DNA of 64,000 nucleotides, from NCBI RefSeq assembly GCF_003018115.1, contig NZ_CP027457.1. One strand, written 5' to 3'. The translations under genes and the position numbers were made by a program. Below, piece after piece: positions 11,901 through 14,386 of the stretch. The notes under the pieces were generated by a model. The model worked only from the letters and a program-made list of their open reading frames with translations. It ran no database searches and was not told the origin of the DNA. Position 1 is the stretch's first letter. Every line of letters begins with the position of its first letter. Source of the stretch: Escherichia coli. GTDB taxonomy: Bacteria > Pseudomonadota > Gammaproteobacteria > Enterobacterales > Enterobacteriaceae.

Positions 11901-12111
11901 CAGAGGTCATGACATCCGGGCTGGCACCTGGGTAGAGCGTGACCACCTGAATGGTCGGATAGTCCACTTCCGGCAGCGCCGAAACGGGCAGGGCGCGATA
12001 ACCGATAATCCCGGCGAGTAAGATCGCCACCATCAGCAGCGTGGTGGCCACAGGACGCATAATAAACAGGCGCGACGGGCCGCCTGTGCTGCTCGGGGGT
12101 AACACCTGCAT
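8989..12111 (-). CDS. mdtB: RND multidrug efflux transporter MdtB
   Basis: 1040 aa RND permease; start overlaps the mdtA stop. Confidence 0.95.
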
Positions 12112-13358
12112 CAGGAGCGTGCTCCTTTTTTCGCGTATTCGCGGCTGGTGGCTTTCTCTTCCGGAGTAGTGGCGCTCTGGGCTTCCACCACTTCCACTTT
12201 CGCCCCTTCGGTCAGGCGATCAATGCCGTCTGTCACCACGCGATCGCCCGCAGAAATACCTGCACGGATCACCACTTTCTGACTGTCCTGAATGCCCGGC
12301 GTCACCAGATGTTTGCTGACCTTGTTTTCGCTACTCAGCACCCAGACAAAATGGCCTTCATTGCCCATTTGCAGGGCGGCCGTTGGGATCACTACGGCGT
12401 TTTGTTCGGTGTCGACTAACATGCGCGCGTTAACAAACTGATTGGGAAACAGCGCATCATCCTGATTATTAAAGCGTGCTTTCACTTTAATCGTACCGGT
12501 TGTGGCATCGATTTGGTTATCGAGGCTTAACAGCGTGCCTTCACTTAATTTCTTCGAATTGGTGCGATCCCAGGCTTCTACCACCAGCGGTTTTCCGGCT
12601 TTTTGCGCCTGCACTACAGTAGCGATATCGCTTTCCGGCAGGGTAAAGACTAAATCGATAGGATGCGTCTGGGTGATCACCACAATTCCGGTGGTATCAC
12701 CACTGGAGATTTGGTTACCAACATCAACCTGCTTGAGACCAACGCGACCATCGACTGGTGCGGTGATGCGGCTCCAGTCGAGTTGCAGCTGCGCGCTGGC
12801 GACGCTTGCTTCATCAGCCTTAATGGTGCCTTCGGTTTCACTGACCAGCGCCTGTTGGGCATCCAGCTCCTGACGGGAGACGAGATTGGTTTTTGCCAGT
12901 TGCTGATAACGCGCCAGATCACGGCGGGCGTTAGCAAGCGTGGCTTTATCTTTTGCCAGTTGGCCCTGGGCTTGTGCTAATGCAACTTTGAACTGGCTGG
13001 GGTCAATTTCTGCCAGTAAATCGCCTGCTTTGACCTGCTGGCCTTCCTGGAAATGTAACGCCATCAGTTGACCGTCCACGCGGCTGCGCACCGTAACAGT
13101 ATTAGCGGCGGTAATGGTGCCAAGCCCGATGAGGTAACGCGGAACTGCCTGTTCTACGGCGGTCGCCGCCTGAACCGGGGCTAATGGGCCGGAACGCATA
13201 CCACGGCGACCACCCGCTGGCGATTGCTGCGCTTGTTTCGTCGCCCCTGGGGCTGCACTCTGGGAGTCATTGCGGCCTTGCCAGAACCAGAATGCGGCGA
13301 TGGCGGCGATAACCACCACGATTACGATTACCCAACGGGATTTATAACTGCCTTTCAT
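12111..13358 (-). CDS. mdtA: Membrane fusion (periplasmic adaptor) protein MdtA
   Basis: Track ORF 12111..13505; conserved start [15 protein letters not shown] at internal ATG (complement of 13356-13358); RND adaptor family. Confidence 0.9.
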
Positions 13359-13411
13359 CGTTAAGAGTTTCTCTTCCTGAAACGTTTCGCGGAATGATAC
13401 TAGTGTAGCCA

Positions 13412-13429
13412 GCCAATAAGGGAGAAAAA
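13412..13429 (-). promoter_or_regulatory. BaeR binding box upstream of mdtA
   Basis: Minus-strand sequence TTTTTCTCCCTTATTGGC, about 55-70 nt upstream of the mdtA start, matches the remembered BaeR consensus TTTTTCTCCATDATTGGC. Confidence 0.6.
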
Positions 13430-13585
13430 TGGAGGAATTATGAAACACTATCGGGAATCGTCTGAATGGCGGGCACATTTGCGAGCACGCATCCAGTAAT
13501 AACACAGGAAACTATTTTATCTACGCGTTAGCGATAGACTACATACAGGGCGAAAGGAGGTAAGCCGCAGATTTCAGCCGGATGC

Positions 13586-13729
13586 TGAAACGGGAAAGCC
13601 CCTCCCGAGGAAGGGGCCTTAAATAAGGAAAGGGTCATGATGAAGCTACTCATCATCGTGGTGCTCTTAGTGATTAGCTACCCAGCATACTAAGACTACC
13701 AGGGCGGGGGAAACCCCGCTCTACCCTCA
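13586..13729 (-). ncRNA. sibB: Sib antisense sRNA (antitoxin to ibs), copy 1; ends approximate
   Basis: Antisense to the ibs ORF; candidate -35 TTGACA (complement of 13759-13764) and -10 TACTTT (complement of 13736-13741); hairpin 13598-13620 followed by a T-rich run on the minus strand as terminator. Confidence 0.5.
13637..13693 (+). CDS. ibsB: Type I toxin Ibs (18 aa, MMKLLIIVVLLVISYPAY), IbsB-like
   Basis: 19-codon ORF encoding a hydrophobic peptide of the Ibs family; located between mdtA and yegL as ibsA/ibsB are in K-12. Confidence 0.75.
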   Translation: MMKLLIIVVLLVISYPAY

Positions 13730-13913: not shown

Positions 13914-14057
13914 TGAAACGGGAAAGCCCCTCCCGAGGAAGGGGCCTTAAATAAGGAAAGGGTCATGATGAAGCTACTCATCATCGTGGTGCTCTTAGTC
14001 ATAAGCTTCCCCGCTTACTAAGACTACCAGGGCGGGGGAAACCCCGCTCTACCCTCA
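13914..14057 (-). ncRNA. Sib antisense sRNA, copy 2; ends approximate
   Basis: Same promoter/terminator arrangement as copy 1, shifted by one repeat unit. Confidence 0.45.
13965..14021 (+). CDS. ibsB: Type I toxin Ibs (MMKLLIIVVLLVISFPAY), IbsB-like, second copy
   Basis: Same 19-codon ORF, one residue different from copy 1; repeat unit 2. Confidence 0.75.
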   Translation: MMKLLIIVVLLVISFPAY

Positions 14058-14242: not shown

Positions 14243-14386
14243 GAAACGGGAAAGCCTCTCCCGGAGAAGAGGGCTTTTAATAAGGAAAGGGTTATGATGA
14301 AGCACGTCATCATACTGGTGATACTCTTAGTGATTAGCTTCCAGGCTTACTAAGAACACCAGGGGGAGGGGGAAACCTCTCCCTAA
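14243..14386 (-). ncRNA. sibA: Sib antisense sRNA, copy 3; ends approximate
   Basis: Antisense to the third ibs ORF; flanking hairpin gcctctcccggagaagagggc conserved in position. Confidence 0.4.
14294..14353 (+). CDS. ibsA: Type I toxin Ibs (19 aa, MMKHVIILVILLVISFQAY), IbsA-like
   Basis: 20-codon ORF in the third, more diverged repeat unit; nearest to yegL. Confidence 0.7.
   Translation: MMKHVIILVILLVISFQAY

Follow-up and report, generated by a model that had tools for sequence, protein, structure and literature searches.

Dimers of OmpR/PhoB-family response regulators bind tandem direct repeats at a spacing of about one helical turn, often replacing the -35 element of the promoter. At the pho box recognized by PhoB, tandem direct repeats at about 11 bp stand in for the -35 element and lie about 10 bp upstream of the -10. 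In a DNase I footprint, DzrR, the OmpR-family regulator of the desAB RND pump in Dickeya/Burkholderia, covers CGGTTCTCCATCATATCTCCATATT, which contains two CTCCAT repeats 11 bp apart (PMC10052836). The closest characterised homologue of DzrR is AdeR, and deletion of baeR has no effect on desAB induction (PMC10052836).

BaeR binds as a dimer (PMC11644481), and the mdt-bae site is one of only four reported BaeR sites, with those at spy, acrD and ycaC (PMC2731931); it has been termed 'well characterised' (PMC3160322). The 18-bp BaeR consensus, TTTTTCTCCATDATTGGC, is credited to Nishino et al. 2005 where it is quoted in PMC3799227, PMC3915751 and PMC11644481, while a shorter core, TCTNCANAA, attributed to Yamamoto et al. 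2008 as quoted in PMC3799227, corresponds to positions 5-13 of the 18-mer. A literature search, with the original BaeR papers beyond its reach, found neither a DNase I footprint at base-pair level nor a mutagenesis study for the mdtA box, and a paper describing an A. baumannii BaeR footprint offered no usable motif. That the mdtA box is a BaeR site with positive autoregulation is already known and supported, and has been in the literature since 2005.

Here we compare these systems with the mdtA promoter in a 64-kb window of Escherichia coli DNA, the window being the whole stretch that was analysed. The BaeR site at mdtA probably takes the OmpR/PhoB form of a tandem direct repeat, with an ancestral half lying mostly outside the 18-mer at 13412-13429. 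Like the DzrR box, it stands upstream of an RND efflux operon, and its arrangement, TTTCAT-N5-CTCCAT-N4-CTCCCT, resembles that of the desAB repeats; the regulator differs, however, and the analogy is one of architecture only. Compared with the pho box, the half-site sequence is different, and we infer the geometry at mdtA from mapped starts and conservation.

Results

The initial annotation described a BaeR box upstream of mdtA with one or two mismatches to the consensus and at a suitable distance from the gene, and the minus-strand letters that it quoted for 13429..13412 are exact. The box agrees with the consensus at all but one position, the sole mismatch being a C for A at position 10, and it is the only match with three or fewer mismatches on either strand of the window. 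Matches with at most one mismatch occurred in 0 of 100 dinucleotide-preserving shuffles of the window, and the analytic expectation is 3e-4 chance matches per window, or 0.02 per 4.6-Mb genome. The box is upstream of mdtA and on the same strand, with 53 nt between its 3' end and the mdtA ATG, and the distance proved suitable in that, relative to two starts mapped in K-12, the box covers the -35 region, where an activator of the OmpR/PhoB type would be expected to bind. Compared with the K-12 mdtA box, it is the same in sequence, position, orientation and operon, with no difference at the box. We are confident that this 18-mer is the BaeR operator already known from the E. coli mdtABCD-baeSR promoter. 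The coordinates of the box, the promoter elements and the operon genes are collected in Table 1.

Table 1. Features of the mdtA promoter and operon in the window, with identity to the window sequence in three groups of species where available. Half-site assignments (H1 to H3) are putative.
Feature	Position	Strand	Escherichia	Citrobacter	57 other species	Remarks
mdtA	12111..13358	minus				415 aa; ATG 13358..13356; first gene of the operon
mdtB	12111-8989	minus				Intact
mdtC	8988-5911	minus				Intact
mdtD	5910-4495	minus				Intact
baeS	4498-3095	minus				Intact
baeR	3098-2376	minus				Intact; 240 aa
mdtA transcription starts (two)	13396 and 13388 (+/-1)	minus				Transferred from K-12, identical here
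-10 block, CTACACTAGTATCATT / CTAMACTAGTATCATT	13393..13408	minus				Invariant; identity 0.94 in other genera
-10 hexamers TACACT and TATCAT	13407-13402; 13399-13394	minus				Overlapping pair; each 6-7 nt upstream of one mapped start
BaeR box (18-mer, as published)	13412..13429	minus				Reads TTTTTCTCCCTTATTGGC; 17/18 to consensus
H3, CTCCCT	13419..13424	minus	1.00	0.97	0.31	Promoter-proximal half-site core; inside the 18-mer; kept only in Escherichia/Citrobacter
H2, CTCCAT	13429..13434	minus	1.00	1.00	0.99	Promoter-distal half-site core; 10 bp upstream of H3; shares only its final T with the box
H1, TTTCATAAT	13437..13445	minus			0.89	Core TTTCAT at 13445-13440; 11 bp upstream of H2
ATTGGC	13417-13412		0.94	0.60	0.46	
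Box minus T-tract	13424-13412		0.97	0.80	0.38	
Far-upstream background	13518-13446		0.90	0.56	0.41	

The 601 bases around the box are 100% identical to many RefSeq chromosomes in which the downstream gene is annotated as mdtA. The genes mdtA-mdtB-mdtC-mdtD-baeS-baeR are contiguous, abutting or overlapping on one strand, and the mdtA regulatory region extends over roughly 13592-13359, bounded upstream by the Sib terminator of the nearest Sib/Ibs copy, which ends at about 13593. Three ORFs for Ibs-family type I toxins lie on the plus strand between yegL and mdtA (13637-13693, 13965-14021 and 14294-14353), with Sib antisense RNAs expected opposite each; the copy nearest mdtA encodes MMKLLIIVVLLVISYPAY. 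K-12 MG1655 differs in having two ibs/sib copies, ibsA/sibA and ibsB/sibB, instead of three. On the other side of the operon, between yegP (1853-2224) and yegQ, two 98-aa ORFs on the minus strand (1050-1346 and 1348-1644) are annotated in the closely matching NZ_CP025892.1 as a ParD-family antitoxin and a RelE/ParE-family toxin.

SMRT-Cappable-seq in K-12 mapped the starts of mdtA (b2074) to 2153978 and 2153986 on NC_000913.3 (PMC6131387 Supplementary Data 2), which places the box at about -33..-16 relative to the start at 13396 and about -41..-24 relative to that at 13388. No acceptable -35 hexamer was seen in the sequence 16-18 bp upstream of either -10, and a sigma-70 pair scan found none there. 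A -10 without a plausible -35, as here at both hexamers, is the signature of an activator-dependent promoter, and a site overlapping the -35 region in a promoter without a -35 hexamer, as the box does here, is the arrangement of class II activation. The two starts are 8 bp apart, each with a -10 hexamer in a block that is invariant across about 25 genera. TTGGCT (13416-13411), considered as a -35 hexamer, was rejected because it is just 11 bp from TATCAT. In the 5' UTR, a small hairpin, AAGAG-AAA-CTCTT (13363-13375, minus strand), adjoins the likely ribosome-binding region. Its Citrobacter version, ATGAG-AAA-CTCAT, carries a compensatory change, and the hairpin forms in 6/6 Escherichia, 14/17 Citrobacter and 0/57 other species, making it lineage-specific at best.

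All experimental data on the box, whether on occupancy, expression or starts, come from K-12 and were transferred to the window strain by sequence identity. The mdtA promoter of K-12 MG1655 is identical to the window across the box and the core promoter, with the box at NC_000913.3 2153945-2153962; a 181-nt alignment of the two contains three differing positions, all farther upstream than the box. In K-12, identity to the published box, occupancy by BaeR in vivo, BaeR-dependent expression and the start sites are all established. A BaeR ChIP-exo peak (peak_5, 2153931-2153967, S/N 11.0; Choudhary et al., PMC7657598 Data Set S2) encloses the whole box and converts to 13443..13407 in the window, with its centre at about 13425. 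The initial annotation had named a BaeR footprint mapped to another part of the mdtA promoter as its refutation, and this peak does not refute it. A second peak (peak_6, 2153972-2153998, S/N 15.0; PMC7657598) lies over the -10 and start region and, at 13402..13376 in the window, covers both mapped starts. By RNA-seq under ethanol stress, deletion of baeR in K-12 reduced expression of mdtA, mdtB, mdtC, iceT/mdtD and baeS by log2 values of 4.0, 3.8, 3.6, 3.4 and 4.6, respectively (PMC7657598), which for mdtA and baeS amounts to a decrease of about 16- to 25-fold. Autoregulated expression of mdtABCD-baeSR, as first suggested from the sequence, is supported by this loss of mdtA and baeS expression together with the intact baeS and baeR genes in the operon. 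In the spy promoter of K-12, the box with its perfect 18/18 match (1825764-1825781) falls between two BaeR peaks (1825677-1825711 and 1825823-1825843) and inside neither, so the ChIP-exo peaks of PMC7657598 are not base-pair-exact locators of boxes.

For the comparison across species, we used 80 mdtA loci, one genome per species from about 25 enterobacterial genera, including Escherichia, Citrobacter, Enterobacter, Klebsiella, Raoultella, Kluyvera, Cedecea, Buttiauxella, Atlantibacter and others. Loci were found with the MdtA protein as query and no motif selection, and the 160 nt upstream of each mdtA ATG were aligned. The promoter contains two near-invariant blocks, 13445-13425 (TTTCATAWTTCCTCCATTTTT) and 13408-13393 (CTAMACTAGTATCATT), and the 16 bp between them, which include 13 of the 18 box bases, are variable. 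The distance from CTCCA at 13434 to TATCAT is exactly 35 bp in 79/79 species, the one remaining sequence having a diverged -10 block. Conservation of the whole box is 0.98 in Escherichia and 0.84 in Citrobacter, while in the 57 other species only its 5' TTTTT is kept (0.98). Because the last 13 box bases are at background level outside Escherichia/Citrobacter (0.38 vs 0.41), their role is uncertain. This pattern suggests that the 18-mer is part of the site only, and perhaps not its most important part. Judged by the alignment, conservation appears to be centred on the CTCCAT that precedes the box core by 10 bp, and not on the 18-mer, which is a modest new point. Of 5,417 E. coli records, about 5,279 share the same 61-bp core promoter; for the 11.6-kb operon, only 250 records reach at least 99% identity. 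Farther upstream, at 13447-13467 on the minus strand, the alignment shows further conserved blocks, ATTCAGAC, TCC and A.AGT.

The elements TTTCAT (13445), CTCCAT (13434) and CTCCCT (13424) are direct repeats with spacings of 11 and 10 bp. The CTCC of the mdtA box has another CTCC 10 bp upstream, and the two segments, TTCCTCCATT and TTTCTCCCTT, are identical at 8 of 10 positions; the pattern CTCC-N6/7-CTCC occurs once in the 64-kb window, at the mdtA box. The centre of the ChIP-exo peak falls at the junction of H2 and H3, and the CTCCAT+CTCCCT pair is itself centred at about 13427. The outermost element, H1, could be a third half-site or, alternatively, the -10-like CATAAT of an upstream promoter that finds no support.

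The K-12 spy (18/18) and acrD (17/18) boxes have the same orientation relative to their genes as the box at mdtA, and their distances to the ATG are 138 nt and 70 nt. Both contain the CTCCA core within the box itself, whereas the core of the mdtA box is CTCCC and its perfect CTCCAT lies outside, 10 bp upstream. A further CTCC is found 11 bp upstream at acrD, compared with 10 bp at mdtA, and the spy box is preceded by a full TCTCCAT at 22 bp. The K-12 upstream region of ycaC, the fourth reported BaeR target, has no match to the 18-mer within three mismatches, and ycaC was left out of the half-site comparison.

Published observations from two other genera bear on the conserved element. A gain-of-function allele of baeS induces mdtA in Klebsiella (PMC13059784), and the Klebsiella species sampled here are without the second CTCC (H3) at mdtA. 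In Erwinia, BaeR shifts a fragment from upstream of mdtABC, and overexpression of BaeR induces mdtA 20-fold, compared with 0.9-fold for CpxR overexpression (PMC4107485). Both sets of observations fit the invariant element as the ancestral BaeR site, though the conservation of H1 and H2 could have another cause.

Discussion

In the mechanism that we consider very likely, phosphorylated BaeR, an OmpR/PhoB-family response regulator, binds over the -35 region of the mdtA promoter and recruits RNA polymerase to the two close starts by class II activation. Activation then turns on the MdtABC efflux pump, MdtD and the genes for the kinase and the regulator themselves, giving positive autoregulation. 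The array bound by phosphorylated BaeR would be TTTCAT(13445)-N5-CTCCAT(13434)-N4-CTCCCT(13424), with the half-sites assigned by inference, and CTCCAT at 13434-13429 would be its ancestral core. In E. coli, CTCCAT+CTCCCT may be the occupied pair, and the published 18-mer would then combine the proximal half-site with the T-tail of the distal one and the flanking ATTGGC. The two starts, 8 bp apart, may use different half-site pairs, H1+H2 or H2+H3. Taken as a whole, a tandem array in which the invariant CTCCAT lies outside the 18-mer core, the 18-mer is an Escherichia/Citrobacter composite and the starts may use alternative pairs is a tentative reading, possible but somewhat short of an even chance.

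We also considered that the 18-mer is by itself the whole BaeR site, with the conserved upstream block serving as the -10 of a second promoter, as a UP-like A/T tract or, on the other strand, as a CpxR site. This seems unlikely to us. A sigma-70-like pair, TTCAGA-18-CATAAT (13466-13437), does coincide with the conserved blocks, but the SMRT-Cappable-seq listing (PMC6131387) has no start near 13430. CpxR has been reported as a co-regulator of mdtA (PMC4462101), and there is a weak CpxR-like match, GAAAAATGGAGGAAT, at 13438-13424. However, this match is only 7/10 and is missing both conserved T's, a scan for GTAAA-N5-GTAAA gave best matches of 7/10, and a CpxR box was rejected on these grounds as the cause of the conserved block. 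K-12 has no CpxR ChIP-exo peak at mdtA, and in Erwinia it is BaeR that shifts the mdtABC upstream fragment, with mdtA expression left essentially where it was by CpxR overexpression. A complete site within the 18-mer also leaves unexplained why the invariant core is CTCCAT, the sequence common to other BaeR boxes.

A second alternative reverses this assignment: the functional site would be the upstream pair TTTCAT-N5-CTCCAT (13445-13429), and the remainder of the 18-mer, CTCCCTTATTGGC, a lineage-specific spacer that in E. coli resembles the spy and acrD boxes by chance. The coordinates of the initial annotation would then mostly miss the functional site. The conservation data fit this arrangement, as H2 and H1 are kept in the 57 other species (0.99 and 0.89) and H3 and ATTGGC are not (0.31 and 0.46), and the best match to the consensus has H2 at its centre in many genera. 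The geometry is also favourable, since the 11-bp spacing from H1 to H2 is that of the footprinted DzrR repeats and H2 lies at about -38..-33 from the start at 13396, the usual place of a proximal half-site. Against it, a 17/18 match in E. coli that includes the ATTGGC common to spy and acrD is very unlikely to arise by chance, and the midpoint of the ChIP-exo peak (13443..13407) is near 13425 and not 13437. Moreover, both H3 and the box are completely conserved in Escherichia and in about 5,300 genomes of E. coli. On balance, we think it unlikely that the upstream pair is the sole functional site at mdtA.

That the box is a chance resemblance with no regulatory role draws only on the general caution that a consensus match is not itself evidence of function, and is so improbable, given the expectation and shuffles above, the invariance of the box across E. 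coli and its place inside a BaeR ChIP-exo peak in the BaeR-dependent promoter of the best-established BaeR target, that occupancy and expression in K-12 already effectively rule it out.

The mdtA box controls the clinically relevant MdtABC efflux pump and the BaeSR envelope-stress autoregulatory loop. The 3' half of the 18-mer by which BaeR targets are predicted in other bacteria appears to be lineage-specific. If the tandem-array reading is true, searches for BaeR regulons in other genera that are based on the 18-mer would miss or misplace sites. BaeR sites across the Enterobacteriaceae may be better predicted with a model of CTCCAT direct repeats that takes the invariant upstream element as its anchor.
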